Part shown: positions 5,950 through 59,307 of the stretch, piece after piece
Layout: each line of letters begins with the position of its first letter
How positions within the stretch are numbered: the first letter of the stretch is position 1
Origin: an uncultured Phycisphaerales bacterium
Lineage (GTDB): Bacteria > Planctomycetota > Phycisphaerae > Phycisphaerales > UBA1924
Direction of reading: 5' to 3'
Length of the DNA: 64,000 bases
Assembly: GCA_937995595.1 (NCBI GenBank)
Contig: CALKJW010000014.1
Location: 4,876 to 68,875, forward strand
Position numbers and translations under genes: made by a program
Notes under the pieces: generated by a model
Database searches by the model: none
Seen by the model: the letters and a program-made list of their open reading frames with translations, nothing else
What the model was told of the DNA's origin: nothing

Positions 5950-6000
5950 AGCCCGGCGCGGCGCCGGGCGCGGTGCGTGCGGGAGCGCGACTGTGCGAGC

Positions 6001-22762: not shown

Positions 22763-22774
22763 GTCGGCTCTCCG

Positions 22775-24250: not shown

Positions 24251-24254
24251 GTGG

Positions 24255-37189: not shown

Positions 37190-37218
37190 TGTTTCTTACA
37201 TTTGTTCTTATATTCTAC

Positions 37219-41342: not shown

Positions 41343-41876
41343 CTACCGGATCTGGCCGATGGTCACACGGATCGGCCCGCGCGAACGGATCGGTTCGCCC
41401 TCGGCGGGCTCAAACCGGCAGTGCAACTGCACGTCCTGCGTGGGGAGACGGTCGGTGCCGTGCTCGAGGATCGAGAACCGGAAGCGGTACCCCGGGCCGG
41501 GCAGCAGCCGCTCGACCGCGCGGGCCGAGGCGTCGCGGTCGAACGTCCAGACGCCCATGCGCTCGCCTGAGAGATTCTCGATCTCGAACCGGAACGCGCC
41601 CGGCACGGTCACCGGGACATCGCGCGGCGGCGCGAAGAGGAACGCGGTGACGACGATCTCGTCGGCAAAGCCGTTCTTGTCGCTGTCGTTGGCGTAGCGG
41701 GCCGCGGCGACCTCCAGCACCGTCGGCACCACCCCGGCGGGTTGCGCCGGGACCGGCCGCGGGGGCGGTTTGCCCTGCGGGCCGTCGGCCACGCAGCCGG
41801 CGACGAACACCGCGGCGCCGAGCAACGCCGCGCGGGAGAGGCTCGCAAGGCGGTGCGAGGGGGCGAACGGTCGCAT
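41343..41876 (-). CDS. lipoprotein of unknown function, translationally coupled to the secretin gene
   Basis: MRPFAPSHRLASLSRAALLGAAVFVAGC (lipobox VAGC), Pro-rich linker, then a beta-rich domain. Its ATG (41876..41874) shares one nucleotide with the secretin TGA (TGATG). Only the last 534 nt of ORF 41343..42689 are taken as coding. Confidence 0.7.
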   Translation of the reverse strand: MRPFAPSHRLASLSRAALLGAAVFVAGCVADGPQGKPPPRPVPAQPAGVVPTVLEVAAARYANDSDKNGFADEIVVTAFLFAPPRDVPVTVPGAFRFEIENLSGERMGVWTFDRDASARAVERLLPGPGYRFRFSILEHGTDRLPTQDVQLHCRFEPAEGEPIRSRGPIRVTIGQIR

Positions 41877-44800
41877 CAGGGCTCCGATCTCGGGCCGCGC
41901 CCGGTGCCGGTGGGCGGCATGGGCTCGGGCTCGGGCTGTTCGTCCAGGGGCCGCATGTAGTTGAGGATCCGCGCTGGCTGGCGCAGGCGGCCGACCTCGC
42001 GTTCGCTCAGGACGCGCATGCTCGACACTTCGTCCTCGCCGCCGCCGCGGATCACGCGCGGCGTGAGCAGCACGAGCAGTTCGGTGCGGGCCTGTGTGCG
42101 CTTGGTGGATCGGAACGCCTCGCCGACGAAGGGGATGTCGCCCAGCAGGGGGACCTTGGTGCGGCGTTCCTCCTCGGTGGTCTGGAGCAGGCCGCCGATG
42201 ACGACGGTCTCGCCGTCGCGGACGCGGACGTTGGTCTCGATCTCTCGCTTGGTGATGATCGGGGCCTGGAAGTCCTCGGTGACCTGCGTGGTGCGGGCCG
42301 AGAGGCTGGAGATGACGGGCACGATGTCCATGCGGACGAACCCGTCGGAACTGATCGTGGGCGTGACGTTGAGGATGATGCCCACGTCCTCGCGTTTCAC
42401 GTTGGCGAGCGTGTTGCCGTTGTCGCGGCGCTCGACGGACTCGACGATGCCGACGTTCTCGCCGACCTGGATGCGAGCCGCCTCGTTGTTGTTGACGAGG
42501 ATCTGCGGGCGGCTGAGGACTTCGAGCCGGCCCTGGGCCTCCAGCGCGCGGATGAGCAGCTCGAAGTCCGAACTCGACACCGAGAGGTTCGGCACGCCCA
42601 GCGCGGTGACGACGCTCGCGCCCGCGGCGAGCGTCCGCACGCCGTACATCTCGCCCCCGAAGGGACCCACGGAGATGTCCATGCCCCACGACTGCTCGGC
42701 GTCGATCGTCACCTCGGCCAGCAGGACCTGGATCATCACCTGCGGGGGCGTGGAATCGAGTTCGCGCACGAGGCGCTCGACGGTCTCGCGGTAGTGCGGC
42801 GACACGCCGACCACCAGCCGGTTGCTCGGGGTGTCGCCCTGCACCGTCACCTCGCGCTCCAGCATGCGGGCCAGCGAGCCGGCGCGGTCGGCCCCCAGCA
42901 CGCTGCGGATGGTGCTGGCCTGCTCGGTGAAGTACTGCCGGAGCGTCGCGGCGACCTCGGCCGCCTTGGCGTTGCGGAGCTCGAAGACCAGTTGGTCGCG
43001 CTCGTTGGCCTCGATGCTGTCCAGTTCGCTGACGACCTCCTCGACTCGGCGCAGGTACTCGGGCGTGCCGGAGACCAGCAGCGAGTTGGTCCGCGCGTCG
43101 ATGGTGATGGCCAGTTGCTGGCGCTCGTCGAGCGACGGGTACAGTGCGTCCTCGCCCAGCGCGGGCGGGACGCCCGCGGCGTCGTCGGCGCGACCGGGCA
43201 CGAGCACGAGGGTCGCGCCGTTCTGGCGCAGGTTGAACAGTTCGCGCAGGACCTCGGCCATCGCACGGGCGTCGGCGTTGGTCAGTCGGAAGACCTTGAT
43301 CTCGCGCGCACCGGCGACGGTCGAGTCGAGATCGCCCACCAGCGCCTCGATCAGCACCATCAGGCGCGCCGGGGCGACGGCGACGATCGAGTTGGTGCGC
43401 AGTTCGGCCGTGAGCGTCACCTGCTCCTGGATCGCGCCGCTGATCTCGGCCTCGGTGGGCTCGCGGTGGGCGCCCGCGGCGAGTTCGGCGGCCGTCTGCC
43501 CGCGCACGAAGCGGAGCAGTTGGGCCTTCCGCGCGCCGACGACGCCCGGCCCGGCGATCGGCCGCCCGGCCAGCACGTTCTGCAGCAGGCGCACGACCTC
43601 GGCGGCGTCGGCCTTGGTCAGTTCGATGCGCTTGATCTCGGCCACCGCGGCGACGCCGGTGCCGTCGAGCCGCTCGACGAGCGTGCGCACCGCCTGGATG
43701 TCAGCCGGCGTGCCGCGGACGATCAGCGCGTTGAGGCGGAGGTCGAGCGAGACGCGCACCGCGTCGGGGCCGCGGTCGCGGACCTGCCGGTCGACGTACA
43801 GCGTCTGCACGGCCTGCAGGACCTCCTCGACCCGCGCGGATCGGACGGGCACCACGTCGACCGATTCGAGCCCGGCCACGGCCTCGCCGCCGCGCGTGAG
43901 TTCCTCGACCAGCCCGCGGATGATCTCGACGTTCTCGCTGCTGGCGGCGACGATGAGCGAACGGCTGGCGGTGTCGGGCTGGATGGAGAGGGTGTCGCTG
44001 GGCCCGGCGATGCCGCCGGCGCGGCGCGCGGCCTCCATGCGGTCGCGCATCAGCCGTTCGATGCGCGGGGCCAGTTGGGTCACGTCGCCGCTGGGCACGG
44101 GGATGACCGTCAGGCCGACGGTCGGCCCGCCGGCGTCGGCGTCGAGCTGCGCGATCAACCGTTCGACGATCGCGAACGAGCGGGCGCTGGTCGAGATGAC
44201 CAGCGCGTTGGTGCGCACGTCGGAGGAGATCACCAGATCGTCCTGCGGGAGCAGCGCGCCGCTCTGCACCTGCCCGCGGAAGACGTCGCGCAGGATCGCC
44301 GCGACGCGGTCCACCGCGGCGACCTTGAGCGCGAAGATGCGCACGGTGTTCTCCGCCGCGGCGGCGGGGACGTCGAGGAGTTTGACGATCTCGGCGACGG
44401 CCTGGGCGTTGGCGCGGCTGCCGACGACAATGACCGCGCGGAGGGTCGGCTCGGGAAGGATCACCAGCGTTGAGATCGGCGCGAAGCGGTCGGCCTGGAT
44501 CATGCCCTGCACGTCGGCGGGGTCGCCGCCCTCGGCGAGGATGCGGTAGCGCGCGACCTGTCGCTGCAGCGCCTCGGCCTCGGGCGAGGGCGGCACGTTC
44601 TCGAGCAGCACCTGGCGCACCGTCGAGGCGAGCCGGACGGGGTCGGCGTGCTCGACCCGGATGACGCGGGGCTCGATCCAACTGGTGGTGCGCTCGCTGT
44701 CGAGTTGCTTGACCAGCACCTCGACCAGCGCGACGGCCTCCTCGCGTCCCGCGACGATCATGGCGTTGGTGCGCTCGTCGACGCTGACGGCGACCTGCCC

Positions 44801-47800
44801 GGTCAGGGCCTTGCCCGTCTCGCTGGTGGGCTGCGAGCGGATGGTCGTGCCGGGGTTGGTGCGCAGGCGGTCGCCCTGGTCGAAGATGCCGCGGATCACC
44901 CCCGCCAGTCGCGTGGCCGAGGCGTTCTGGAGCGGGAAGATGCGGACCAGCACGGCCTCGCCGACGGGCAGGGCGTCGAGCATCTCGACAACCTGCGAGA
45001 GCGCGAGCACGTTGCCCTCGGTCGAGGCGATGACGACGGCGTTGGTCTGCGGCTCGGCCGAGACGCTGATCGGGCGCGACAGGTCGACCTGCAGGTTGGC
45101 CTTGTCGGCCTCGCTGCGGTGGATGGTGAGCCGGCGGACCTGCTCGGCCAGCGCGGCGGCGAGCTCGACCTGCGAGTCCTGCGTGCGCGGCCTGAGCATG
45201 GCCTCGACCGCCGCGGCGACGTTGGCCGCGGGCGCGGTCTTGAGGCGGATGAAGGCGACGTGCTGGTCGGCGAAGGCGGGCTGGCGGTCGAGCGAGCGGA
45301 CCAGCGACTGCACCGCCGCGCCGTCCTGCGGGCCGGCGATGACGGCGATGGCGCGCCGGCTGGTGAGCGGGACGATGGTGACCGGCTCGGCGACGATGCC
45401 GGGGCGGTCGGCCGGCTGCGGCCGCGTCAGGCCCATCTGCTCGAGCGTAGCGCGCATCTGCTCGGGCGTGTGGTGCTCCAGGTCGATCAGGAGCATGCCC
45501 TGGTTCAGGCCGGGGACGGTCCCGTCGGCGGGCGCGCCGCCGCGCGGCGCGGCCAGCGCGTCGAGTTCGACGACCAGCGCGCGGATCTGCTCGTAGAGGC
45601 GCTCGCTGCTGGCGACGACGAGGTTGTTGCCCGTGCGGTCGATCTCGACGGTGAGCGACTCGTTGGCCTGCTGCGCGACGGGCTGGAAGGTCGTGCGGAC
45701 GGTCTGCAGGACGCGCGCGACGGGGAAGTTGGTCACGCGGATGACCCGCACGCTGACCTGCGAGCGGTCGCCCTCCTGCTGGAGCGAGTCGGCCATGACC
45801 TTGATCTGCGCGAACTGCGCGTCGTCGGCGCGGACGACGATGACGTTGCTCCGGTCGTCGCCGACGATGAGGACCGATCGCGCCGTGATCGTGTTTGCGC
45901 GGCCGCGACCGGCCTCGGCGGTGTCGACGAACAACTGCCGCAGCGTCGCGGCGACCTGTGTCGCGGGCCCCCGCTTGAGCGCGATGATCCGCGGCTCGGG
46001 GAGTTGCGAGTAGGCGGGCACGTCGAGTTGCTGCGCGACGGCGCGGATGCGTTCGGTCTGGTCGCGCGGGCCGGCGATGACCAGCGAGTTGGTCAGCGGC
46101 TCGGCGGTGACGCTCACGACCTCCTTGCTCGACAGCACGACGGTGGGGAACTCGGGGAACTGGTCGTCGGCGCGGCGCGGCTGCTGGGGCTGGCGGCGGG
46201 CGCGCTCGCGCTCGATCTCGGCGCGGAGCGGCGCGCTGAACGCCTCGGACAGCGCGCGGGAGAGGCTCTCGGCGTCGGCGTGCTTGAGCGCGACGATCTC
46301 CAGCCGGCGCGAGGTGTCGTACTCCTCGGAGTCGAGTTTCTCGAGCAGCGCGCGGATGCCGGGCCACTCGGCCTCGCCCGCGGCGATCACGAGGCTCTTG
46401 CTGGCGGGGTTGGCCAGGATGCTCACCGCGCGGGCGCCGGGCGTCTGCGCCTCGCGCGCGAACTGGCCGTAGAAGACCTCCAGCGCGCGGGCCGTCGCCT
46501 CGGGGTCGGCGAACCGGAGCGGGATGAACTCGGTGGCGCGCTTGCCGGCGCGGGCGACGTCGAGTTCCTTCACGACCGCGAGGATCTCCTCCATCTGGTC
46601 GGGCGTGGCCGAGACCAGCAGCGTGGTGCCGGGCGAGAGCGTGCTGATCGCCGGGGCGGGTTCGTTGGGCCCCAGTTGGCGTCGCGACAGCAGCGAGCGC
46701 AGCGTCGAGGCGATGTCGTACCCGTCCTGGTGCGCAAGGTCGATCCGGCGGAACTCGGTCTGCGGCCTGGGCGGCGTCGCGTCGAGTTCGGCGATCTGCG
46801 ACATCACCAGCCGCACCGCCTCGTCGGAGCCGGTCAGCAGCAGCGTGTTGGTCCGGCGGACGGGCGTGACCTTGACCTTCACGCTCCGCGGCAGCGCGGC
46901 GGTGAGCGACTGGGCCACGTCCTCGGCGCGTGACTGGCCGAGTTGCACCGTCACGATGCGCGACATCTCGGCCTCGGGCGGCGCGTCGAGGCTGTTGACC
47001 AGCGCGTCGACCTTCTCGAACAACTCGCGCGGCGCGGAGACGATCACCGAGTTGGTCCCCGGCTGGGGCGTGACGATCACCAGCCCCTCGCGCGAGGCGA
47101 GCGTGCGCGGGAACTGCTCGCGCAGGATGCTGGCCAGTTCGCCCGCCTCGGCGTTGCGCAGGCGGTAGAGTTCGCGGACGCGCCCCTCGGTCTCCTCGGG
47201 CTGGTCCATCTGCGTGACGAACGCTCGGACCTGCGCCATGTCCTCGCGCGAGGCGGCGACGATCAGCACGTTGCCCTCGGTCGAGCCGATCACGCTGACG
47301 ACGCTGCGTTCCAGCCCCGCGCCGCGGTCGCGCCCCTCGAAGAAGCGCGACAGATTGGCCGCGATGCGCTCGGCGCCGGCGTAGGTCAGGCGGATGGTCT
47401 CGACCTCGCGGTCGGCGATGCCCGAGGCCGAGTCGAGGTCCCTGGCGTAGCGCTCGGCCTGCGCGACGCGGTCCTCGCGGCCGATCATGAGCAGCACGCC
47501 GGCGCGCCGGTCGACCTCGACGCGCACGCCGTCGGGGTCGTTGCCGCGCCACCACGGCCAGCCGGGCGTGCTCATGGCCGACTGGATGGCCGGGCCGACC
47601 GACTGCGGGCTGGCGTTGACGAGTTTGACGGCGCGGACGACGAGCCGCGCGCCCTCGGGCTGGGGCGTGTCCAGCGCCTGGATGATCTTCTCGATGGTGT
47701 CGAACGCCTCGCCCTGGCCGAAGAGCACGACGCTGTTGGCGCGGTCGTTGAACTGCGCGCTGAGCGTGTCCTCCTGCGCGGCGCGGCGGTTGCCGGACCA

Positions 47801-50800
47801 CCAGTTGGACGGGTACTTCACCTCCTCCACCACGCCCTCGACGGTCTGGCGGATCTCGGCGACCCGCGCGTGCCGCAGCGCGATGACGCGGAACTGCATG
47901 TCCTGGCGCGCCGACGGCGCGTCGAAGGTCGCGACCAGCGACTGCACCTGCGCGAAGTCCTCCTCGCTCGCGGCGACGACCAGCGAGCCGCTGCGGCGGT
48001 CGCCGATCACCGCCACCTGGCGCTGGCGCGCCGGCTGGTTGGGCCGGCTCGACGCCCTCGCGCGGTCGTCGTAGAACCGCTGCAGCGCGGCCGCGACGGC
48101 CTCGGCGTCGGCCCGCTCGAGTTTCAGGCTGCGCACGGGCAGGCCGGCGACGTCGGACGAATCGATCTGCGCGACGATGCGCCGGGCCTCGTCGATCATC
48201 TCGCGCGGGGCGCGGACGACCAGCACGCTGGTCTCGTCGGCCGCGGTGAGCCTGAGCCGCTCGCGCCGCGCGGGGTCGTTGCCGACGATCGCCGCTTCGA
48301 CGATGCGCTGCGCGGTGCTGGGGCGCGTCGAGCGCAGCGCGATGATGTCGGTCTCCGAACCGTCGGCCTCGGCGGGCAGGTCGATCTGCGCCAGCAGGCG
48401 CTCGGACTCGCGGTGGTGGCTCTCGGTGCCGGTCACGAGCACGGCGTTGGTGCGGGCGTCGACGATCAGCGAGGGGCGCGGCGACTCGGGCGCGGCCTGT
48501 CGCGCGGCCTCGAACGCCTGCTGCAGCATCGGCACGGCCTGCTCGGCCCGCGCGTTGCTCAGTGCGAACCGGCGCAGCGCGAACTGGTCCTGCATCGGCG
48601 CCTGGTCGAGCAGCGAGATGAAGCGGTCCAGCAGCGGGATCGCGTCGGCGGGCGCGGCGATGATGAGCGAGCGGCCCGCGGGGTCGGCGGTGGCCCGCAC
48701 CGTGGCCGGGTCGATGCGCAGCGCGCGGCCGTCGGGCCCCGCGCCGCCGTCGAAGGCCAGTTGCAGCACGCGCTGGGCCTGCCGCCCGCGCGGCACGGGG
48801 CTGAACAGGTCGAACACCGCGCGCACCACGCGCGGCGCGCTCGTGTTCGTCAGCGGGTACACCTTGATCGTGAGCGTCGAGCCGGGCAGCGGCTTGCTGA
48901 CCGCGCCGATCAGTTCGCCCAGCACGGCGAAGTCCGTGTCGTTGGCCGAGACGATGACCGCGCCGCCCTGCGGGTCGGCCTGCACCGAGACGCGCGCCGT
49001 GAACCCGCCGGGGTTCTGCGCCGTGGCCTGGCCGATCTGCGCGGCCGTCTGGTTCACGATGCTCGCGATCACGTTGGCGTCGACGCCCTCGGGCAGCGTC
49101 ACGATTCGCAGACGCAGCGGCTCGGCGGGCATCTGACGCTGGAGTTCGGCCGCGAGCGCGGCGGCGCGGTCCACCGCGCGGCTGCTGCCGGAGATGATCA
49201 GCGAGTTGGTCGCGGGGTCGACCGCGATGGTCACGCCGTCTTCGGGCTGCGCGGCCTGTTCGTCCAGCGCGCCGATGACCGCCGCCGCGAGCCACGCCGC
49301 CACGGCGTGCGCCCCCGACGCGGCGGGAGCGTCGGGGCCGGGGCGCAGCGGCGCGGCGTTGCTGCCCTGCTTCTTGTCGTCTCGCGCCGGGGCGAGCAGT
49401 TCCTCGACGCTGATCACCTCGACCTTGGTCGCGGCGCGCTGTTCGAGCAGCCGGCGCAGCGCCTCGGCCAGCATCTGCGCATCGGCCTTGGAGCGGTCGA
49501 CGTTGATGAGGCGCATGTCGCGGCTGGCCGCGCTGGTGGCCTTGTCCAGACCTTTCACGAGGTCCTCGATCGAGGCGATCTGCCGCTCGGTGCCGCGGAC
49601 GACCAGCGAGTTGCTGGCGCGGTCGACGCGCACGACGGGGGCCGGCTCGGCCGCGATGCCCGCGCCGTCGTCCTGGAAGACCGCCTGCACGCTCTGCGCG
49701 GCGTCGTCGGCCGCGGCGTTCTGCAGCGTGAGCACGCGGACGACGCGCGCGGCGCCCTGCGGCGTCTGGGCCATGTCGATGTCGAGGTCGGCGATCACCT
49801 GTTTGGCGACCTCGACCGACTCGCGCGGTCCGCTGACGACGACGACGTTGAGCCGACGGTCCGCCGCGACCTTCACCGGCACGAGCGTGCGGGCCTGCTC
49901 GGCCGCGGCGACGGGGACGCGCGTGCCGGGGCGGAACTGCTGGAACTGGGGCGCCGGGTCGCGGTGCAGGAGCTGCTGCACGATCGGGGCGATGGCCTCG
50001 GCGCGGGCGTGCTTCATCTGCACGGTGGCGACGGAGACGGCGCCGGGCTTGTTGCCCTCCAGGTCGAGCGAGCGGGCGATGTCCTCGACCATCTGGACGT
50101 CGGCCGCGCTGCCGCTGATGACCAGCGCGTTGGAGCCCTCGGCCGACGAGACGCTGACGCGACCGCCCGCGGGCCCGAAGCCGCCGAGCGGCGCGAGCGA
50201 CTGGTTGATCGCCTGCGCGGTGGGGCCGGACTCGACGAACTTGAGTTCGAGCACCCTGACGACGGGCTTGGCGGCCAGGCGCGACAGTTCGTCCACGATC
50301 CGCGCGTAGCGCGCGACGGCCTCGGCGTCGCCGCTGACGAGCAGCGCGCCGCGCTCCCTGTCCTCCTGCACGTCGACGCGCGCCGCGCCCGGGACCATCG
50401 CCACCTGCTCGCGCTCGATCTCCGCGGCGCGGGTGCGCACCGCGGCGAGAGAATCGGACGGCACGAGCAGCACGCGGAAGACCGCGTCGCGCGCCGTCGC
50501 GCCGTCGATCGACGCCGCGAGCGACTCGATCGCGGCAAGGTCCTCGGGCCGCGCGCGGACGATGAGCGAGCGCGTCTCGTCGACGGCGTCGAACCGCGGC
50601 TCGACGTACGCCGAGCCGTCGCCCGGCTCCAGCAGCGTGCGGGCCAGCTGCGCCATGCGTCCGACGATCTGGCTCGGGCGCGCGTGCCTGAGCGTCAGCG
50701 TGCGCGTCTCGCGCTCGACCACGATGCCCGACTCGACCGAACGCAGCAGGTCGGTGAACGCGGCGATCGCGACCGAACTGCCGACGAGCGTGACGGTGCG

Positions 50801-52390
50801 GCTCTCGCCCTCGAGCGACGCCGCGACCGGCTCGGTCTCGGCGCGCGAGGACTGCCTGTACAACTGCTCGGCCCGCGCGACGACCTTCGCCGGGTCGCCC
50901 TGCGCGATGCGGACCTGCCGCGCCTCGCGGTCGCGCTCGGCGGGGACGTCGAGGCCCTTGACGAGGCGCTCGAGGGCCTCCACGTCGGCCACGGGACCGG
51001 AGACGACGAGGCTGCGGTCGTCGACGCCCTGGGCGTAGCGCAGCACGGCGGTCTGGCGCGGCGAGAGCAGGCGCGACACGAGATTCAGCGCGGCCTGCGC
51101 GGTGAGGTGGCGCGTTCGCAGCACCGCCACGCGCGACTCGGGCGCGGCGCGGCGCGGCGCGCCGTCGGCCTCGGGCGTGGTCGGCGTCGCTTCGGGGTCG
51201 ATCTCGGCGATGAGCGCGGCGCACAGGGCGAGCTGCTCGGCGGTGCCGACGATGGTGAGTTTGCCCTGCTGCGGGAGCGGGAGGATGGTCGGGCGCGAGC
51301 CGGGCTCCGGCGGCCCTCCGCCGCCCCCCCCACCGCCTCGCTCGCCGCGCTGCTGGAACAGGCGTGTGACGTGCCCCGCGGCGTCGTCGGCGTTCACGCC
51401 GCCGAGCACGAAGGTGAGCATCTCGCGCCCCGTGCCCGCGCCGTCGGGCTGGTCGAGCAGCGCGACCAGTTCGCCCACGACTTCGAGCCGCGGCTTGGGG
51501 CCGACGGCGATGATGCTGTTGGTGCGCGGGTCGGGCTGGATGCTCAAGCCCTCGATCTGGTCGTCCTGCACGGTGGTCTTGCGGCCCTGCTGGTCGACGA
51601 AGGTGATCTGCTTGCGCTCGGCGATGAGGCCCTTGAGCGCGGCGTGGACGCGTTCGGCCTGCGCGTGCCTGAGCGGGAAGAGTTTGAACTGCGCGTCGCG
51701 CGGGCGGTCGGCGTCGAGTTGCTCGATCACGCCGCGGAGCCGGCGGCACTGGGCCGCGGTGTCGACGATGATCAGCGCGTTCTGCTGCGGCAGGGCGGTG
51801 ATGCCGCCGAACCTGCTCACCATGCCCTTGAGTTGCTCGGCCAGCGGCGCGGCGACGGCGTTGTTCAGCGGCACGACGGTCGTGATGACCTCCGCCGAGC
51901 CGATCTCGTCGGGGATCTTGCCGACCACCTGCCCGAAGGCGCGCATCTCCTCGGCCTTGGTCAGCAGCAGGTAGCGGCCCTCGCGGCGCAGTTGCACGCC
52001 GTGCATGAACAGCAGGCGGTTGAGCACGTCGAGCGCCTCGTCGAGCGTGTACTTGGTCGCGCCGATGAACGTCAGGCCGCTCTTGGGCGCCTCGGCCTCG
52101 CGGATCACCGGCAGGCCGGTCTGGCGCGCCATGAAGTCCAGCACCTGCTCGAACGGGACGTCCTTGAAGTTGAACTCGATGCGCTCGTCACGCGCGGCGG
52201 GCGCTGGCGCGACCGGCTCCGGCTGCGCGGCAACCGGCGCAACCTCCGGCGCGGCCACGACGGGCGCGCCCTCCGGCGCGCCCGCCGCGGGTTCGGCGCC
52301 CTCGGCCTGTGCGAACACCGACACCGGTTGACCCGCGGCCAGCACAATCAGCGCGGGAACAAGCAAACGACGGGCTGGGCGGGTTCTCAC
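41876..52390 (-). CDS. gspD: giant GspD-type secretin (~3,504 aa): N0-like domain + ~36 secretin N-domain modules + secretin C-domain
   Basis: GTG 52390 is preceded by AAGGAGGGACGGAGAC. Signal peptide VRTRPARRLLVPALIVLAAGQPVSVFA. N0-like RIEFNFKDVPFEQVLDFMARQTGLPVI...YTLDEALDVLNRLLFMHGVQL. Repeated ...D.RTNS(L/I)(I/V)V.G......(V/L)..L(V/I)..LD modules follow. C-terminal LEVLSRPQILVNNNEAARIQVGENV...ITKREIETNVRVRDGETVVIGGL...VPLLGDIPFVGEAFRS...ELLVLLTPRVI. Confidence 0.9.
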   Translation of the reverse strand: MRTRPARRLLVPALIVLAAGQPVSVFAQAEGAEPAAGAPEGAPVVAAPEVAPVAAQPEPVAPAPAARDERIEFNFKDVPFEQVLDFMARQTGLPVIREAEAPKSGLTFIGATKYTLDEALDVLNRLLFMHGVQLRREGRYLLLTKAEEMRAFGQVVGKIPDEIGSAEVITTVVPLNNAVAAPLAEQLKGMVSRFGGITALPQQNALIIVDTAAQCRRLRGVIEQLDADRPRDAQFKLFPLRHAQAERVHAALKGLIAERKQITFVDQQGRKTTVQDDQIEGLSIQPDPRTNSIIAVGPKPRLEVVGELVALLDQPDGAGTGREMLTFVLGGVNADDAAGHVTRLFQQRGERGGGGGGGGPPEPGSRPTILPLPQQGKLTIVGTAEQLALCAALIAEIDPEATPTTPEADGAPRRAAPESRVAVLRTRHLTAQAALNLVSRLLSPRQTAVLRYAQGVDDRSLVVSGPVADVEALERLVKGLDVPAERDREARQVRIAQGDPAKVVARAEQLYRQSSRAETEPVAASLEGESRTVTLVGSSVAIAAFTDLLRSVESGIVVERETRTLTLRHARPSQIVGRMAQLARTLLEPGDGSAYVEPRFDAVDETRSLIVRARPEDLAAIESLAASIDGATARDAVFRVLLVPSDSLAAVRTRAAEIEREQVAMVPGAARVDVQEDRERGALLVSGDAEAVARYARIVDELSRLAAKPVVRVLELKFVESGPTAQAINQSLAPLGGFGPAGGRVSVSSAEGSNALVISGSAADVQMVEDIARSLDLEGNKPGAVSVATVQMKHARAEAIAPIVQQLLHRDPAPQFQQFRPGTRVPVAAAEQARTLVPVKVAADRRLNVVVVSGPRESVEVAKQVIADLDIDMAQTPQGAARVVRVLTLQNAAADDAAQSVQAVFQDDGAGIAAEPAPVVRVDRASNSLVVRGTERQIASIEDLVKGLDKATSAASRDMRLINVDRSKADAQMLAEALRRLLEQRAATKVEVISVEELLAPARDDKKQGSNAAPLRPGPDAPAASGAHAVAAWLAAAVIGALDEQAAQPEDGVTIAVDPATNSLIISGSSRAVDRAAALAAELQRQMPAEPLRLRIVTLPEGVDANVIASIVNQTAAQIGQATAQNPGGFTARVSVQADPQGGAVIVSANDTDFAVLGELIGAVSKPLPGSTLTIKVYPLTNTSAPRVVRAVFDLFSPVPRGRQAQRVLQLAFDGGAGPDGRALRIDPATVRATADPAGRSLIIAAPADAIPLLDRFISLLDQAPMQDQFALRRFALSNARAEQAVPMLQQAFEAARQAAPESPRPSLIVDARTNAVLVTGTESHHRESERLLAQIDLPAEADGSETDIIALRSTRPSTAQRIVEAAIVGNDPARRERLRLTAADETSVLVVRAPREMIDEARRIVAQIDSSDVAGLPVRSLKLERADAEAVAAALQRFYDDRARASSRPNQPARQRQVAVIGDRRSGSLVVAASEEDFAQVQSLVATFDAPSARQDMQFRVIALRHARVAEIRQTVEGVVEEVKYPSNWWSGNRRAAQEDTLSAQFNDRANSVVLFGQGEAFDTIEKIIQALDTPQPEGARLVVRAVKLVNASPQSVGPAIQSAMSTPGWPWWRGNDPDGVRVEVDRRAGVLLMIGREDRVAQAERYARDLDSASGIADREVETIRLTYAGAERIAANLSRFFEGRDRGAGLERSVVSVIGSTEGNVLIVAASREDMAQVRAFVTQMDQPEETEGRVRELYRLRNAEAGELASILREQFPRTLASREGLVIVTPQPGTNSVIVSAPRELFEKVDALVNSLDAPPEAEMSRIVTVQLGQSRAEDVAQSLTAALPRSVKVKVTPVRRTNTLLLTGSDEAVRLVMSQIAELDATPPRPQTEFRRIDLAHQDGYDIASTLRSLLSRRQLGPNEPAPAISTLSPGTTLLVSATPDQMEEILAVVKELDVARAGKRATEFIPLRFADPEATARALEVFYGQFAREAQTPGARAVSILANPASKSLVIAAGEAEWPGIRALLEKLDSEEYDTSRRLEIVALKHADAESLSRALSEAFSAPLRAEIERERARRQPQQPRRADDQFPEFPTVVLSSKEVVSVTAEPLTNSLVIAGPRDQTERIRAVAQQLDVPAYSQLPEPRIIALKRGPATQVAATLRQLFVDTAEAGRGRANTITARSVLIVGDDRSNVIVVRADDAQFAQIKVMADSLQQEGDRSQVSVRVIRVTNFPVARVLQTVRTTFQPVAQQANESLTVEIDRTGNNLVVASSERLYEQIRALVVELDALAAPRGGAPADGTVPGLNQGMLLIDLEHHTPEQMRATLEQMGLTRPQPADRPGIVAEPVTIVPLTSRRAIAVIAGPQDGAAVQSLVRSLDRQPAFADQHVAFIRLKTAPAANVAAAVEAMLRPRTQDSQVELAAALAEQVRRLTIHRSEADKANLQVDLSRPISVSAEPQTNAVVIASTEGNVLALSQVVEMLDALPVGEAVLVRIFPLQNASATRLAGVIRGIFDQGDRLRTNPGTTIRSQPTSETGKALTGQVAVSVDERTNAMIVAGREEAVALVEVLVKQLDSERTTSWIEPRVIRVEHADPVRLASTVRQVLLENVPPSPEAEALQRQVARYRILAEGGDPADVQGMIQADRFAPISTLVILPEPTLRAVIVVGSRANAQAVAEIVKLLDVPAAAAENTVRIFALKVAAVDRVAAILRDVFRGQVQSGALLPQDDLVISSDVRTNALVISTSARSFAIVERLIAQLDADAGGPTVGLTVIPVPSGDVTQLAPRIERLMRDRMEAARRAGGIAGPSDTLSIQPDTASRSLIVAASSENVEIIRGLVEELTRGGEAVAGLESVDVVPVRSARVEEVLQAVQTLYVDRQVRDRGPDAVRVSLDLRLNALIVRGTPADIQAVRTLVERLDGTGVAAVAEIKRIELTKADAAEVVRLLQNVLAGRPIAGPGVVGARKAQLLRFVRGQTAAELAAGAHREPTEAEISGAIQEQVTLTAELRTNSIVAVAPARLMVLIEALVGDLDSTVAGAREIKVFRLTNADARAMAEVLRELFNLRQNGATLVLVPGRADDAAGVPPALGEDALYPSLDERQQLAITIDARTNSLLVSGTPEYLRRVEEVVSELDSIEANERDQLVFELRNAKAAEVAATLRQYFTEQASTIRSVLGADRAGSLARMLEREVTVQGDTPSNRLVVGVSPHYRETVERLVRELDSTPPQVMIQVLLAEVTIDAEQSWGMDISVGPFGGEMYGVRTLAAGASVVTALGVPNLSVSSSDFELLIRALEAQGRLEVLSRPQILVNNNEAARIQVGENVGIVESVERRDNGNTLANVKREDVGIILNVTPTISSDGFVRMDIVPVISSLSARTTQVTEDFQAPIITKREIETNVRVRDGETVVIGGLLQTTEEERRTKVPLLGDIPFVGEAFRSTKRTQARTELLVLLTPRVIRGGGEDEVSSMRVLSEREVGRLRQPARILNYMRPLDEQPEPEPMPPTGTGRGPRSEP
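42749..51889 (-). repeat. protein-level tandem array of ~36 secretin-N (N1-like) modules, ~85 aa each
   Basis: Manual parsing gives 36 consecutive units. Each starts with a hydrophobic beta strand plus L(K/R)(H/N)A.A helix and ends with ...D.R(T/S)N.hhh.G/A...h..hh..LD. The units are divergent at DNA level, with no long identical repeats seen by eye. Confidence 0.75.
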
Positions 52391-52536
52391 GTCTCCGTCC
52401 CTCCTTGAACACCCCCACCCCCTACCCCCCCGCCCCTTCGACCCTCCCCCGACCCACCGGCCACGCACGCGATTGCCGGTGGAGACGGCGTGTGCGCCGG
52501 CCAGTCTCCGCTCGCCGCGCGACGCCAGTGTACCGA

Positions 52537-53526
52537 TTACGACACCGACTTGCGTTCCGCGAGGGTTGACCCTAGGCGAACTTCAAAGACGTCCTCCCCG
52601 ATTCGGATGCGAGCAACTTCCCCGGAACCGGTCACGAATGTGGCGCCGAACACCTCTGCACCCGGTGCGAGCGTTCGCGTCTCGCCCGACCGCGTGTTGA
52701 CGATCCACAACTCCGGCCCGGAGGGAGACTGCACGACCGCGGTGATTCGCCAATCGGCAAGGCTGGGCGCGGCCGGGGGCGGAGGGGGCGGCGGCGCCTC
52801 CACTACCGGGCGCTCGCGGTCGGGCGGGCGCGGCGGGGCGGGCGGCTCGCGGAACACGTTCTTGGCGACGATCGCCCGCCAGGGGTCGATGGCCGCGTCG
52901 TCGATGGGGCTCCAGATGCGCGCGGCGGACTCGTCGGTCGAGCGCGACCTCCCGCCGCGCACGAAGACGCCGGTGATGGTGACCGACAGGTCGACGCTCT
53001 CGCGTTCGCGCCCGAGCACGCGCAGGCCGACGCCGTCGATGCGGCAGACCCACGGCTGGGCGTTGAGCAGCGCGATGGTGCGCACGGCCTGCTCGAGCGA
53101 GCACTCGCCGGTGAGCGTGGCCGACAGCGCGTGGAAGTCGGGCCGCTCGCGCACTTCGCGGGCGCGGAACTCGCGGAGGCGCGAGCGCGTCGCGGGGTTG
53201 ACCTGCGGGCGCGAGGTCGAGGTCGAGACCTGTGCGCGCCGGAGGCCGACGTGCGCGGCCATCTCGTTCAGCGCCCGTCGCAGCACGGCGTTGGCCTCCT
53301 CCTCGCTTGCGCCCAGCGAGATGTCCGCCAGTTCGTCGAACCGTTTTCGCAGGCGCGGCGCGTCGGCCAGTTCGACCTCGCGCGAGTCGAGCCCCTCGCG
53401 GTAGCGGACGATCTCCGCGTCGAGCGCGCGGCGTCGGCCGCTGTAGGTGCTCCAGCCCCACCAGCAGCCGATGCCGACCGCCGCGGCGGCGGCCACGCTC
53501 AACGCCTGTCGCGTGCGCCTGTTCAT
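52537..53526 (-). CDS. bitopic T2SS assembly protein, GspM-like N-terminal half with PilP/GspC-HR-like C-terminal beta domain
   Basis: MNRRTRQALSVAAAAAVGIGCWWGW (TM), then a helical region, a poly-Pro linker (PPAPPRPPDRERPVVEAPPPPPPPAAP), and WRITAVVQSPSGPELWIVNTRSGETRTLAPGAEVFGATFVTGSGEVARIRIGEDVFEVRLG. Its ATG overlaps the upstream TGA (ATGA at 53523-53526). Only the 3' 990 nt of ORF 52537..55647 are taken. Confidence 0.6.
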   Translation of the reverse strand: MNRRTRQALSVAAAAAVGIGCWWGWSTYSGRRRALDAEIVRYREGLDSREVELADAPRLRKRFDELADISLGASEEEANAVLRRALNEMAAHVGLRRAQVSTSTSRPQVNPATRSRLREFRAREVRERPDFHALSATLTGECSLEQAVRTIALLNAQPWVCRIDGVGLRVLGRERESVDLSVTITGVFVRGGRSRSTDESAARIWSPIDDAAIDPWRAIVAKNVFREPPAPPRPPDRERPVVEAPPPPPPPAAPSLADWRITAVVQSPSGPELWIVNTRSGETRTLAPGAEVFGATFVTGSGEVARIRIGEDVFEVRLGSTLAERKSVS

Positions 53527-55244
53527 CCGCCGCCTCCCCCGCCGCGGGTCGGGCGCGGCCGCTGGTTGCGCGGCTGGTCGGTCCGCGGCGTGTTGGCGGG
53601 CGCGGCGGCGGGCTGCTGCGCGGGCTGCGCTTCGGTTCGCGGCGCGGGCGTCGCGCTCTCGGGCTGTCGCGGCGCGGGCTCGGGGTCGTTCCGCGCGGCC
53701 GCGGGCGGCGTGGCGATGTCCGACGCGCGCGGGCCGGGTGCGTCGTCGGGAGTCCGGAAGCGCGTGGTGAGCGTCCACTCGAAGCGGTCGGGCAGGTCCG
53801 AGCCGCGGGTCTGCACGCTGTAGCGCTGGTCGGCGACGAGCCGGGCGCGGAGGGCGTCGGCCACCTCGCGGCGCTTCATCGAGCCGGCGATGGACATCGA
53901 CCCGTCGTGCCGCACCGCCCACGCCGCGGGCGTGTAGACGCTCTGATCGCGCGTCGGCGCGTACACGACCTCGACGTCGCTCTTGGCGGTGACGCTGTCG
54001 AGCACGGCCTCGCGCGGGTCGGGCATCTGCGCGCAGAGCATGTTCAGGTGCGCCAGCCAGTCGATCTCGTTGTCGCGGAAACGCCGGAGGTGCTCGAGCC
54101 GCGCCTGCATGCGGACGAACTCGGCGTACTGCTCGGACTGCAGGCCCCACTCCTCCTTCAGGCCGGCCAGGGTCCGCTCGCGGCGCTGCAGGTCGAGGCG
54201 CGCGGCGGTGAACGCGCTGCCGCCGACGACGATCGCCGCGAGCGCGCCCAGCAGCACCAGCCGCCGGCGCTGCCCGGCAAGGTCCGGCGCGCGGCGCGGC
54301 GAGGCGAAGTCCAGCGTGGCCCTGCCGATCGCCGGCTCGGCGAGCAGGCCGATGAGCGGCGCGACGGCCGAGCGGTCGGCCTCGGGCATGTCGGCGGCGA
54401 TCTCGACGTAGCGCGGGAACCCGGCGGCGTCGCTCGGCAGGTCGAGCGTCTCGGTGCACCGCTGGGCGACAAGGCGGCTGAGCGGGTCGGAGCCGAGCAC
54501 GGTCACGGCCTCGATCGACGGCGCGTCGGGCGCGGCGCGGTACGACATCCACGTGCGCTTGGCCTCGACGGCGACCTTCTGCGCAAAGGCGTCGGCCTCG
54601 TCGGTGCTCGCGGGCCGCACCAGATCGGTGGCCCGGGCGAAGACCAGTTGCCCGCCCTCGACGATGACGAACTCGGTCGATTCCGCGCCCAGCGCGACGC
54701 CGAGCGTACCGCCGCTGCGGCCCTGCGCCACCTCGGCGAGCAGCGCGGCCGCGCCGGCCGACTGCAGCGCGACGCGCCCGAGCCGCAGCCCCGCCGCGCG
54801 GCAGACGGCCCGACGCCACTCCAGCCGGTCGCCCTGGAGCGCCGCGGCCAGCACCGCCGCGCCGCTCTCGCCGTCGTCGATCGGCACGTAGTCGATCGCG
54901 GCGTTCTCGGGCGAGACCGTCAACTGGCGGACCAGTTGCAGGCGCACCATGCCGGGCAGTTCGTCCGGATCGGTGCCGGGCGGGAAGGCGATGCGCTTCA
55001 TCACGACTTCGCCGCGCGACACCGCGAACACGACGCGGGCCCGGCGCGCCGCGCTCCAGAGTTTGGCGCTCTTGAGTTCGGACGAGACCCAGCGGCCCGC
55101 CGCGGCGGCGTCGTTGAAATCGAGCGCCGGCGGCCGCGGCACGCTGAGCCATGCGCGGACGGTGACGCGCCCGGACTGCACGCCCGCGGCGACCGCCACG
55201 AGGCGGTTGCTCTCCAAGTTGATGGCGACCTGGTTCCGCTCCAT
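53523..55244 (-). CDS. GspL-like protein (PilM-type actin-like ATPase-fold domain + TM + PilN-like periplasmic domain)
   Basis: N-terminal ~330 aa match the PilM/GspL-cyto pattern (VAINLESNRLVAV..., LGVALGAESTEFVIVEGGQLVFAR). TM helix LVLLGALAAIVVGGSAFTAA, a coiled region, and a Pro/Ala/Gln-rich tail ending GGGGGG. ATG 55244 is preceded by GAGGG; alternative TTG at 55292. Confidence 0.7.
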   Translation of the reverse strand: MERNQVAINLESNRLVAVAAGVQSGRVTVRAWLSVPRPPALDFNDAAAAGRWVSSELKSAKLWSAARRARVVFAVSRGEVVMKRIAFPPGTDPDELPGMVRLQLVRQLTVSPENAAIDYVPIDDGESGAAVLAAALQGDRLEWRRAVCRAAGLRLGRVALQSAGAAALLAEVAQGRSGGTLGVALGAESTEFVIVEGGQLVFARATDLVRPASTDEADAFAQKVAVEAKRTWMSYRAAPDAPSIEAVTVLGSDPLSRLVAQRCTETLDLPSDAAGFPRYVEIAADMPEADRSAVAPLIGLLAEPAIGRATLDFASPRRAPDLAGQRRRLVLLGALAAIVVGGSAFTAARLDLQRRERTLAGLKEEWGLQSEQYAEFVRMQARLEHLRRFRDNEIDWLAHLNMLCAQMPDPREAVLDSVTAKSDVEVVYAPTRDQSVYTPAAWAVRHDGSMSIAGSMKRREVADALRARLVADQRYSVQTRGSDLPDRFEWTLTTRFRTPDDAPGPRASDIATPPAAARNDPEPAPRQPESATPAPRTEAQPAQQPAAAPANTPRTDQPRNQRPRPTRGGGGGG

Positions 55245-55267
55245 CGAAACCCTCGTGCAAGCCTCGC

Positions 55268-56737: not shown

Positions 56738-57372
56738 GGCGCACCCCCCTGCGGCGCATCGGCCCGTGTGCGCAGCGACCACGCCGCCTCCGGCGCATCG
56801 GGAATGACCAGCACGCGCACCCGGTCGGGCTCGGGCCAGCGTTCGGGCGCCCCCGCCCGCTCCCCGACGGGCTCGAACCAGAGCGCGACCTCGACGGCGG
56901 CGGGCAGGCGGCCCGCGGCCGCGCTGTCGAAGGACGCGGACCACGACCGCCCGTCGAAGTACCGGAACCGGGCGCGCATGGCGCGCTCGGAGAGGGCGTG
57001 CCGCTCGCCCGGCGCGCCCGCCGGCCCTCGCGCCAGCCACAGCATCGGCCCGATGAACTCGTACACCGCCTCGTGCAGGTCGCTCGCGCCCGCGTCGGAC
57101 AGATCGACGCCGCGCGTCAGCACGCGCAGGCGCGTCGAACTCCCCTGCACGCCGGCGCCGCGGCGGGCGTCGCCCGCGATCGCGCCCAGCAGGTCGGACT
57201 CCAGTCGGTCCAGCAGCGCGTCGGCGCCCTGCGCGTCGCTCGCGGCCAGTCCCAGCGCCCGCTGCGAGGACGCCGTGCGCCACGCGAAGGCCGTCACCGC
57301 CGCGGCGAGCATCGCGCCAAGGCCCAGCGCCAGCAGCACCTCCATCACGGTGAACCCGCGTCGAACGCTCAT
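56734..57372 (-). CDS. minor pseudopilin, GspJ-like by position
   Basis: MSVRRGFTVMEVLLALGLGAMLAAAV (G|FTVME prepilin motif). Its ATG overlaps the upstream TGA (ATGA at 57369-57372). Confidence 0.65.
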   Translation of the reverse strand: MSVRRGFTVMEVLLALGLGAMLAAAVTAFAWRTASSQRALGLAASDAQGADALLDRLESDLLGAIAGDARRGAGVQGSSTRLRVLTRGVDLSDAGASDLHEAVYEFIGPMLWLARGPAGAPGERHALSERAMRARFRYFDGRSWSASFDSAAAGRLPAAVEVALWFEPVGERAGAPERWPEPDRVRVLVIPDAPEAAWSLRTRADAPQGGAP

Positions 57373-58576: not shown

Positions 58577-58638
58577 ACAAACGCTCCGAGTGCGCCGGAC
58601 GACCCGGCGAGACGGCGGCCCGGCGCGGCGAAGGCGAC

Positions 58639-59163: not shown

Positions 59164-59307
59164 CCGTTCAGCCTCCTCTGCCCTCCGCCCCGGCCGTCCG
59201 TGCCCGCCCGACCCGCCACCGCATGAGTTTACCGCCGCGACGCCCGCGCGGCTTCGCCCGCGCCTGTCAGGGATTCCCATTGTCACGAGCGGGTATCGCG
59301 CCGGCGT

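Follow-up and report, generated by a model that had tools for sequence, protein, structure and literature searches.

Secretins rank among the best-studied outer-membrane machines of bacteria. The mean size of the family has been given as 555 ± 151 aa (PMC4827864) and, to our knowledge, every solved secretin has between two and six periplasmic rings, with three to six ring-building N-domains in those that have been characterised. The best sequence and fold matches to the protein described here are the GspD proteins of type II secretion systems (T2SS) from E. coli, V. cholerae, K. pneumoniae (PulD) and P. aeruginosa (XcpQ) (PDB 5wq7, 5wq8, 6hcg and 5wln), which are about 650 aa long. The only characterised precedent for extra N-domain rings is the 757-aa PilQ of Thermus thermophilus, a T4P and DNA-uptake secretin that is not GspD-like, in which six stacked rings (N0-N5), described as exceptional, extend the periplasmic tube of a 350 Å complex across a wide periplasm (PMC5745081).

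Three further systems bear comparison. Deinococcus radiodurans DR_0774 (PDB 8co1; PMC10828601), also among the sequence and fold matches, is the secretin of an atypical thick envelope, but its size is ordinary (740 aa) and its elaboration comes from accessory proteins (belt and cap) rather than from multiplied N-domains. The PilQ/GspD secretin ‘nozzles’ that export non-protein polymers (PMC12475490) offer an alternative idea of cargo, although they come from other phyla and that report gives no hint of an expanded set of N-domains. Finally, planctomycetes possess crateriform structures (Boedeker et al. 2017, PMC5394234), PVC-specific complexes of the outer membrane that bear fibres and touch the inner membrane, and whose proteins were not named there. 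Only their morphology is known, and only in Planctomycetia; they keep the two membranes near each other, and nothing ties them to the secretin reported here. No description of a multi-module or giant secretin was found in the open-access literature searched, although such an absence is not proof.

The window, which is the whole 64-kb stretch of DNA analysed, contains an intact gene for a giant secretin belonging to a type II secretion-like machine (type IV filament superfamily) of a Phycisphaeraceae bacterium (Table 1). The open reading frame extends over 41876..52468 on the minus strand and would encode 3,530 aa if counted from its first GTG; the GTG at 52390, preceded 9 nt upstream by AAGGAGG, gives 3,504 aa, and this exact product is already held in public collections. 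Codon composition provides a strong coding signal (GC3 0.96 versus GC2 0.48). The precursor has a mass of 375.6 kDa, such that a 15-mer, if formed, would reach ∼5.6 MDa. The protein shares with GspD a signal peptide, an N0 domain, ring domains of the N1 type (beta-alpha-beta-beta-alpha) and a C-terminal double-barrel secretin domain, and it is encoded alongside gspF-K-like genes, the gspI-like one assigned by position. It differs in having 36 N1-like modules in place of the canonical three (N1-N3) and in standing at the end of its operon beside PilM/N/O/P-like genes.

Table 1. Coordinates of the giant secretin, its parts and the neighbouring genes of the operon, numbered from the first letter of the window.
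Feature	Position	Strand	Evidence and remarks
Giant secretin CDS	41876..52390	(-)	3,504 aa + stop; ORF call, translation
C-terminal tail, aa 3449-3504 (two predicted helices, then Pro-rich end)	41879..42046	(-)	AF2
Secretin pore domain, aa 3282-3448	42047..42547	(-)	PF00263, E 3.8e-50
36 Secretin_N modules (N1/N2/N3-type), aa 170-3215	42746..51883	(-)	Pfam PF03958, self-HMM
Long insertion in module 11, ~aa 1005-1060	49211..49378	(-)	Hydrophobicity scan, junction sequences of L036/L040/L041
N0 domain, ~aa 60-165	51896..52213	(-)	phmmer vs PDB
Signal peptide, ~aa 1-27 (MRTRPARRLLVPALIVLAAGQPVSVFA/QA)	52310..52390	(-)	Judged by eye, no predictor
PilO/P-like partner gene, 329 aa	52537..53526	(-)	Directly upstream of secretin; sequence, AF2, Foldseek
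PilM-like actin-fold domain + TM + periplasmic part (PilM-PilN or GspL-like)	53523..55292	(-)	PilM_2 E 7e-7; start uncertain
GspK-like minor pseudopilin	55268..56701	(-)	T2SSK E 4.8e-5, HHH_3 E 5.5e-14, frame-specific GC3; start approximate
GspJ-like minor pseudopilin	56734..57330	(-)	T2SSJ E 8e-5, below gathering score; start approximate
Probable GspI-like pseudopilin	57369..57938	(-)	Inferred from position and N-terminal hydrophobic segment; no Pfam match
GspH-like pseudopilin	57935..58600	(-)	N_methyl E 8.5e-6, GspH E 0.0012; start approximate
GspG major pseudopilin	58639..59286	(-)	T2SSG E 1.8e-21, N_methyl
GspF/PilC platform protein	59308..60507	(-)	T2SSF E 6e-49, two copies

Both ends of the protein place it within the secretin superfamily (PF00263; TC 1.B.22), by its pore domain and its periplasmic N-domains, while its assembly into a gated outer-membrane pore of 12-15 identical subunits is inferred. 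The signal peptide forms the second-highest hydrophobicity peak within the protein and contains no Cys, and thus the secretin is not a lipoprotein. Residues 62-236 align with residues 10-176, the N0-N1 region, of P. aeruginosa XcpQ (5wln; phmmer against the PDB, E 2e-10), and the N0 region also matches 4e9j, 5ngi and the N0 of M. xanthus PilQ; the Pfam STN match was weak (E 0.004). At the other end, the PF00263 match spans the full profile (1-169), and phmmer searches of the PDB with the C-terminal part returned GspD/XcpQ at 1.4e-40, PilQ at 1.6e-22 and the T3SS secretins MxiD/InvG at 1e-10, with pIV also recovered. An AF2 monomer model of the C-terminal segment (modules 34-36 plus the pore domain) had a pLDDT of 81. 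When it was submitted to Foldseek, T2SS secretins occupied ranks 1-9, with GspD topping the list (5zdh, 5wq7 and 6hcg; E 1e-27 to 1e-24). In both sequence and fold the giant secretin is therefore nearer to GspD than to PilQ or the T3SS secretins. The NCBIfam GspD model TIGR02517 scored 950 bits, but this is inflated by 16 matched stretches. No AMIN family, which marks the N-terminus of the T4aP secretin PilQ (NCBIfam TIGR02515), was found among the Pfam matches to the protein. The two helices of the tail (residues 534-549 and 554-561 of the modelled segment) were assigned from AF2 secondary structure; the tail may possibly correspond to an S-domain.

Between these ends, Pfam Secretin_N (PF03958) matched 31 separate stretches (E 8e-293), while an HMM trained on the secretin itself tiled aa 171-3215 with exactly 36 contiguous modules; for module 7 the match is confined to the second half of the HMM. 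The modules recur with a mean period of 84.7 aa (median 81 aa) and share the consensus vrvi.L..AdA..vA..l..lf...V.v..DprtNsLvV.Gs.e..a.ve.LV..LD. AF2 secondary structure of modules 34-36 shows the beta-alpha-beta-beta-alpha pattern. Linkers are mostly 5-7 aa long, and in approximately ten modules a loop is extended by an insertion of 20-50 aa. Recent tandem duplication was considered as an origin of the array and is ruled out by a mean identity between modules of 30%, by neighbouring modules being no more similar than non-neighbours, and by the low identity of the DNA copies (60-76%). No long tandem repeat was detected in the DNA of the gene.

An earlier note on this stretch, made from sequence alone, had described one uninterrupted ORF of ~3,500 aa with a signal peptide, a GspD-N0-like domain, 36 modules of ~85 aa bearing the secretin N1/N2/N3 signature and a canonical secretin C-domain, and each of these points held, the signal peptide by inspection only. 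The motifs that it quoted (RPQILVNNNEA, VPLLGDIPFVGEAFRS and ELLVLLTPRVI) are all found in the translation. Pfam, run as it had suggested, and the self-trained HMM do assign the repeats to secretin N-domains, and the consensus agrees with its signature. It had also proposed structure prediction for segments of 3-4 modules and for the C-domain multimer; for the C-domain as a monomer, AF2 and Foldseek agree with GspD.

The giant secretin is not a solitary oddity. In an exhaustive HMMER search, 112 of the 148 best-scoring cluster representatives were at least 3,000 aa long, and the largest among the 148 reached 5,532 aa with 57 modules. Length across the best-scoring representatives follows ∼328 aa plus 90 aa per module (r 0.97), and most have signal-peptide-like N-termini. 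All 148 derive from metagenome genomes of Phycisphaerae and other PVC bacteria, and some metagenome-assembled genomes (MAGs) labelled Verrucomicrobiota encode versions with at least 42 modules; these taxon labels are the depositors' own, and several are plainly wrong. None of 20 representatives looked up had a cultured host, the sources being MAGs or metagenomes only. These proteins constitute a large and conserved family, apparently not described before, that is found in metagenome genomes of Planctomycetota and Verrucomicrobiota.

Relatives have anywhere from ∼33 to 57 modules, the differences arising by insertion and deletion of blocks in a single zone that corresponds to modules 5-9 of the window protein. 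Reciprocal-best, colinear module orthology held for 36 of 36 modules with a member of its own cluster and for 35 of 36 with relatives at 35-40% identity, and the ∼28 C-proximal modules show strict positional orthology. Against a relative, dN/dS was 0.23 overall and lay between 0.05 and 0.41 for each of the 36 modules. The array is old, position-specific and under purifying selection. Two groups of apparently shorter relatives were rejected. Those of at most 910 aa, mostly annotated ‘partial’ and recovered by a word-indexed search with the C-terminal 520 aa, proved to be contig-truncated fragments according to their genomic loci and HMMER. Seemingly complete orthologues of 14-26 modules (L036, L040, L041, L051, L060 and L063) are the downstream halves of split genes, since the ORF directly upstream consists of the same modules. 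As some relatives are divided into two genes in this way, the array does not have to be a single covalent chain.

This survey, of the kind suggested in the earlier note for PVC genomes, corrects the impression that the protein is an outlier, as it is a mid-to-small member of its family. The worry that the array might be an assembly artefact was not borne out, with independent public assemblies agreeing on its length. The guess of a planctomycete-like host held, the neighbouring proteins and closest relatives being labelled Phycisphaeraceae or Phycisphaerales, and the statement that no functional description was known agrees with the open-access literature searched, in which no characterised homologue of similar length was found.

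The giant secretin gene closes an operon of the order gspF-G-H-(I)-J-K / PilMN-like / PilOP-like. GspF, G, H, J and K were recognised and GspI was assigned by position, accompanied by an L-like (PilM/N) and an M/C-like (PilO/P) component; the cluster names for GspF include ‘type II secretion system F family protein [Phycisphaeraceae bacterium]’. Compared with the pilMNOPQ neighbourhood of PilQ, a PilM-like gene and a gene with PilO/PilP-like folds precede the secretin, and these follow pseudopilin genes of the gspG-K type. The transmembrane segment of the PilM/N-like protein, RRRLVLLGALAAIVVGGSAF, is evident in its sequence. The start codon (ATG) of the partner gene directly upstream of the secretin overlaps the stop of the preceding gene as ATGA. 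In the partner, an N-terminal transmembrane anchor is followed by a long helix and then a PilO/GspM-like core, which a Pro-rich linker joins to a C-terminal beta domain resembling PilP/GspC-HR. Its sequence gave nothing informative against the PDB (E above 0.8) and only a weak Pfam T2SSM match (E 0.1). Its AF2 model (pLDDT 75) was matched by Foldseek to PilO (5uvr, TMt 0.69), PilP (2y4y, TMt 0.65) and GspC-HR (3oss_C, TMt 0.73, rmsd 2.3); probabilities were 0.99-1.0, yet E-values were weak (0.01-0.3). A homologue lies directly upstream of the secretin in five distant loci (L005, L016, L022, L053 and L061), and in L070 an ORF with the same layout is found upstream. Neither GspE, a prepilin peptidase nor a recognisable pilotin is encoded in the window, nor is a recognisable GspC with a PDZ domain, and PilT and PilY1 are likewise missing from it.

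The best explanation of the locus as a whole is a T2SS-like secretin whose modules form a stacked-ring conduit, although we would not place it above an even chance, and the tube, the docking and the transport are all inferred. In this model, the C-domain would assemble into a gated outer-membrane pore, multimeric as is usual for secretins, and N0 would dock onto the HR-like domain of the upstream partner, which is anchored in the inner membrane; binding of GspC-HR to GspD-N0 is established (PDB 3oss, PMC3169554). The 36 modules, with their short linkers, would oligomerise into stacked rings, giving a single continuous periplasmic tube of 37 putative rings, compared with six in Thermus PilQ. 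At 3-4 nm per ring, a figure scaled from the six-ring, 350 Å Thermus complex, the tube would have a length of ∼100-150 nm. Within it, a pseudopilus or pilus built from GspG-K may grow and push cargo, be it folded proteins, fibre or polymer, towards the outer-membrane gate across a periplasm that is unusually wide or varies in width. That all 36 modules stack is an extrapolation by analogy from proteins with three to six modules, without an oligomer model or an image. An ordinary periplasm is several-fold shorter than a 100-nm tube. The open-access literature searched gave no measured width for the periplasm of Phycisphaerae, and Verrucomicrobiota, the label on some MAGs with the longer versions, are not known to have an enlarged periplasm. 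The weak HR-like assignment counts against the tube, as do the components missing from the window (GspE, prepilin peptidase, pilotin) and the split relatives. The crateriform complexes of Planctopirus also count against it, as they keep the two membranes close rather than far apart (PMC5394234).

Could the long ORF itself be artefactual, whether through mis-assembled repeats, a spurious high-GC reading frame or a decaying pseudogene? High-GC DNA yields many long spurious ORFs, including one of 2,682 aa in another frame of this same strand, and mis-assembly is a common risk for repeat arrays. Against this, the DNA copies are only 60-76% identical, as noted above. Of eleven members of the 90%-identity cluster, drawn from NCBI/ENA, JGI and Logan assemblies (at least 27 contigs), ten independent ones are near-constant in length at 3,496-3,505 aa, the eleventh being a 42-aa fragment. 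The GC3/GC2 contrast and dN/dS values also speak against an artefact, module order is colinear with orthologues in distant relatives, and the family contains more than 100 distinct full-length clusters. An artefact can thus be all but dismissed.

Two other readings accept the gene and dispute the machine. It remains possible that, rather than lining up single file as a straight tube, the modules make a tether that can flex or extend, a periplasmic cage (helical or with several layers), or a wall-threaded scaffold, in which module number would set reach, elasticity or binding capacity rather than a fixed conduit length. The variation in module number by block indels at modules 5-9, the loop insertions, which could make other contacts, and the split-gene relatives, for which covalent continuity is dispensable, are all in keeping with this, as are 2D class averages of Thermus PilQ that indicate considerable flexibility near the N4 ring (PMC5745081). 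However, the uniform and very short linkers favour tight consecutive stacking, the strict positional orthology of the C-proximal modules points to a defined place for each in a fixed structure, and domains of this type form rings in every solved secretin. Less likely is the proposal that the system is not a protein-secreting T2SS at all but a device for extruding or taking up a pilus, fibre or polymer, with the giant secretin as its sheath. Examples would be a type IV-like pilus, a ‘nozzle’ for slime, or the crateriform structures that bear fibres in planctomycetes. The PilM-, PilO- and PilP-like components adjoining the secretin and the lack of GspE and a recognisable GspC-PDZ in the window speak for it. 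So do the cyanobacterial and myxobacterial PilQ/GspD secretins that act as exopolymer nozzles (PMC12475490), and the planctomycete crateriform outer-membrane complexes that touch the inner membrane and emit fibres, with proteins not named (PMC5394234, PMC12673574). The C-domain and N0 are nevertheless closer to GspD than to PilQ, a T2SS-typical GspK minor pseudopilin is present along with weaker GspJ- and GspH-like matches, the secretin lacks AMIN domains, PilT and PilY1 are missing from the window, and the crateriform link is purely conjectural.

Returning to the stacked tube, the earlier note had reasoned that the conduit would be an order of magnitude longer than in known systems if the modules stack; this is retained as an inference, at the length given above. 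Its ideas of an enlarged planctomycete periplasm and of a large envelope pore remain speculation, and the versions with 42 or more modules in Verrucomicrobiota-labelled MAGs weaken any explanation based purely on the planctomycete cell plan. A bolder reading, which we consider unlikely, is that secretins of 33-57 modules are rigid inner-to-outer-membrane tubes of ∼0.1 µm and represent an unrecognised class of trans-envelope conduit in PVC bacteria. On that reading they could underlie the fibre-bearing crateriform or ‘press-stud’ complexes or the passage of macromolecules through an enlarged periplasm. The number of modules would then determine the local inter-membrane distance, and the class would be specific to Planctomycetota and Verrucomicrobiota.

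Whichever architecture applies, a family of 33-57 modules under selection stretches the known range of secretins. It raises the questions of whether there is a limit on the length of a secretin conduit, how a pseudopilus could operate over 100 nm or more, how a complex of several megadaltons would be assembled and cross the periplasm, and how the envelope of PVC bacteria is organised. The positional orthology of the modules, together with the single variable zone, provides a handle for relating module number to envelope dimensions, and the giant secretins are candidate proteins for PVC-specific envelope structures of unidentified composition. Within the array, the long insertion in module 11 contains an internal hydrophobic stretch, AHAVAAWLAAAVIGAL, and is homologous to the point at which the split-gene relatives are divided into two genes; the stretch may possibly be a relic signal peptide.

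The giant secretin ORF lies on the minus strand and its GTG start at position 52390 follows an AAGGAGG motif 9 nt upstream, giving a 3,504 aa product that is recorded identically in public collections. Because the window DNA is ∼72% G+C, several frames contain long ORFs here, and a coding signature was found solely in the giant secretin frame (GC1/2/3 = 0.75/0.48/0.96). No long tandem DNA repeat was detected in the gene, and the module-derived DNA repeats are merely 60–76% identical. Eleven members, located on at least 27 contigs of NCBI/ENA, JGI and Logan assemblies, make up the protein's 90%-identity cluster, and ten of these are 3,496–3,505 aa long. Relative to L005, the closest genome relative (78% amino acid identity, 3,340 codons), dN/dS was 0.23 overall and ranged from 0.05 to 0.41 across all 36 modules. 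As far as sequence data go, an artefactual ORF is ruled out by the divergence of the DNA repeats, the same length across assemblies and the dN/dS of 0.23. The observation in the earlier note that one giant ORF (41876–52390) encodes a secretin therefore held.

Domain searches backed every part of the description. GspD (TIGR02517, 950 bits) was the top NCBIfam match, Pfam placed Secretin_N (PF03958) in 31 separate stretches (E 8e-293), and a single, full-length Secretin domain (PF00263, E 3.8e-50) covers aa 3282–3448. Residues 62–236 align to N0-N1 of Pseudomonas aeruginosa XcpQ (E 2e-10). Iterative training of an HMM on the protein's own sequence converged on 36 modules tiling aa 171–3215, with a mean period of 84.7 aa (median 81 aa), linkers of 4–8 aa at 29 of the 35 junctions, and the consensus vrvi.L..AdA..vA..l..lf…V.v..DprtNsLvV.Gs.e..a.ve.LV..LD. 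The manual count of 36 modules in the earlier note thus held exactly with this HMM, against the 31 stretches of Pfam. The AlphaFold2 model of modules 34–36 and the C-domain (mean pLDDT 81) shows beta-alpha-beta-beta-alpha modules followed by a barrel, and its best PDB matches were T2SS GspD structures (5zdh, 5wq7, 6hcg; E 1e-27 to 1e-24). The C-terminal sequence resembles GspD (1.4e-40) more than PilQ (1.6e-22) or T3SS secretins (1e-10). In sequence and predicted fold, the protein shows the hallmarks of a secretin and most of those of GspD, but it departs from the canonical N0-N1-N2-N3 architecture of GspD.

Identity among the 36 modules averages 30% and reaches at most 45%, and adjacent modules are no more alike than non-adjacent ones, indicating that the array is old. 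Reciprocal best matches with P0160, a relative from the same cluster, paired 36/36 modules in strict order, and 35/36 were paired with relatives at 35–40% identity over the queried part, with large margins (median 70–100 score units). Relatives differ in length through blocks of modules inserted in a single zone, which lies between modules 5 and 9 of the window protein and in which the relatives P0161, P0164 and P0169 carry 3, 5 and 17 additional modules; the ∼28 C-proximal modules are positionally fixed. Each module position is conserved in its own right, a pattern more in keeping with a defined architecture than with a generic spacer.

Six distant relatives (L036, L040, L041, L051, L060 and L063) encode the giant secretin as two neighbouring ORFs. 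L040 and L060 have an in-frame stop at the break, and the other four a frame change. The upstream ORF contains nothing but the same modules, and the downstream ORF begins with a signal-peptide-like segment in L036 and L041. The break interrupts a module in L036, L040 and L041, at a point homologous to a long insertion in window module 11 that retains the hydrophobic stretch AHAVAAWLAAAVIGAL. These relatives point to a gene fusion or fission, perhaps with half-module complementation between the two proteins.

A scan of GTDB species genomes with the C-domain alignment returned 80 loci, titled Phycisphaer- (37), Planctomycetota (7), Planctomycetia-type (11), Verrucomicrobiota-type (15) and other or evidently wrong (10). 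The records of L017, L020, L048, L059, L074, L075 and L080 bear the titles of Leptolyngbya, Cyanobacteria, Klebsiella, Bifidobacterium or Akkermansia muciniphila MAGs. Mislabelling, or contamination of bins that are of PVC origin, is the likely cause, and counts of taxa by record title are therefore approximate. The secretin ORF exceeds the 10-kb upstream flank in ∼55 of the 80 loci, which puts its length there at no less than 3,700 aa and its module count at no less than 33–43. The last 1,200 aa then served as the query for an exhaustive HMMER search across 1.84 billion cluster representatives, which yielded 148 new proteins among the 150 best matches, including 112 of ≥3,000 aa, 62 of ≥4,000 aa and six of ≥5,000 aa; the largest has 5,532 aa and 57 modules. 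Length follows ∼328 + 90.5 aa per module (r 0.97). Within this large family the window protein is unremarkable and on the small side. A Met start is present in 134 of the 148, and most have signal-peptide-like N-termini. A word-indexed search returned only fragments of ≤910 aa, although the collection includes the 3,504-aa representative of the query's own cluster; used alone, such a search misleads length surveys of giant proteins.

The giant secretin is the last gene of a minus-strand gsp cluster. The names carried by neighbouring proteins and relatives place the organism in Phycisphaeraceae or Phycisphaerales, phylum Planctomycetota. No GspE was found within the 64-kb window.

Coordinates of the features discussed (window positions, except for the split-gene loci)
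Feature	Coordinates	Strand
GspF	59308-60507	minus
GspG	58639-59286	minus
GspH-like	57935-58600	minus
Probable GspI	57369-57938	minus
GspJ-like	56734-57330	minus
GspK-like	55268-56701	minus
PilM-like protein + TM segment + periplasmic part	53523-55292	minus
329-aa PilO/P-like protein	52537-53526	minus
Giant secretin ORF	41876-52468	minus
Module 11 insertion	49211-49378	
PstC-like and PstA-like permeases	34844-40101	minus
Three-gene GCS2/RimK-like/Peptidase_C39-like cluster	21506-25016	minus
Ser/Thr kinase-AAA_16-TPR protein	5977-9255	plus
Lamin Tail Domain protein	2169-4397	plus
Split-gene locus L036	1-11377	
Split-gene locus L040	2-11317	
Split-gene locus L060	2-11320	

The ATG of the 329-aa gene overlaps the stop of the PilM/N-like gene as ATGA (53523–53526), suggesting translational coupling; by contrast, the giant secretin is preceded by a 146-nt gap and its own strong Shine-Dalgarno sequence. 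Sequence searches with the 329-aa protein gave no significant match. In its AlphaFold2 model (pLDDT 75), a TM anchor and a long helix are followed by a PilO-like core, which a Pro-rich linker joins to a small beta domain. Foldseek matched the model to PilO (5uvr, TM-target 0.69), PilP (2y4y, 0.65) and the GspC HR domain in the GspC-GspD complex (3oss_C, 0.73, rmsd 2.3 Å). Probabilities were 0.99–1.0 with E-values of only 0.01–0.3, so this likeness is a lead only. Homologues immediately precede the secretin in L005, L016, L022, L053 and L061, and the preceding ORF in L070 shares the TM-helix-core-Pro-linker-beta layout.

Secretin N-domains form stacked rings below the outer-membrane barrel. N0 meets the inner-membrane platform via GspC-HR or PilP (PDB 3oss; PMC3169554), and the six rings of Thermus PilQ give a 350 Å complex that bridges a broad periplasm, described as unusual by its authors (PMC5745081). 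By analogy, N0 of the giant secretin may dock to the HR-like protein encoded upstream, held near the inner membrane by its ∼30-aa Pro-rich linker, while the 36 modules would stack into a tube of ∼100–150 nm at 3–4 nm per ring; an assumed 15-mer would be ∼5.6 MDa. This remains an extrapolation from known secretins, without an oligomer model. The structural interpretation in the earlier note is supported, and its functional idea, an adaptation to an enlarged periplasm or a component of large envelope pores, remains speculation.

Several points count against the tube or limit the case for it. No measurement of periplasm width in Phycisphaerae was found in the open-access literature searched, even longer versions occur in Verrucomicrobiota-labelled MAGs, and planctomycete crateriform complexes hold membranes together, not apart (PMC5394234). 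The modules might instead be arranged non-linearly or flexibly. It is also conceivable that the cargo is a pilus, fibre or polymer rather than folded proteins, for which secretin nozzles offer a comparison (PMC12475490).

The open-access literature searched contains no description of secretins with multiplied N-domains, and the earlier claim that no functional description exists held within that scope; description elsewhere is not excluded. Secretins measured 555 ± 151 aa in a survey of outer-membrane pore families (PMC4827864), and a 2025 Planctomycetota review neither contains the word secretin nor gives a protein identity for crateriform structures. The family's sequences are already public under generic names, where given ‘type II secretion system protein D’ or ‘secretin N-terminal domain-containing protein [Phycisphaerae bacterium]’, and all 20 representatives looked up came from a MAG or metagenome. 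Specialists in secretion systems would find the architecture surprising, and cryo-ET offers a direct test of it; however, it elaborates a known machine, is widespread in existing data and has a mechanism that is still inferred.

Downstream of the giant secretin lie pstSCAB and central-metabolism genes, and the PstS homologue directly downstream is kept in many Phycisphaerales loci. The PstC-like (960 aa) and PstA-like (781 aa) permeases are unusually long. Their BPD_transp_1 domain is confined to the C-termini and GC3 is high over the whole ORFs, indicating large N-terminal extensions of unknown nature. Elsewhere in the window, genes for a GCS2 glutamate-cysteine-ligase-family protein, a RimK-like ATP-grasp protein with an RLAN domain and a Peptidase_C39-like protein may form a cassette for peptide modification or ligation. 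Two Lamin Tail Domains occur in a 742-aa protein, and a protein of 1,092 aa unites a Ser/Thr kinase with an AAA_16 domain and TPR repeats.
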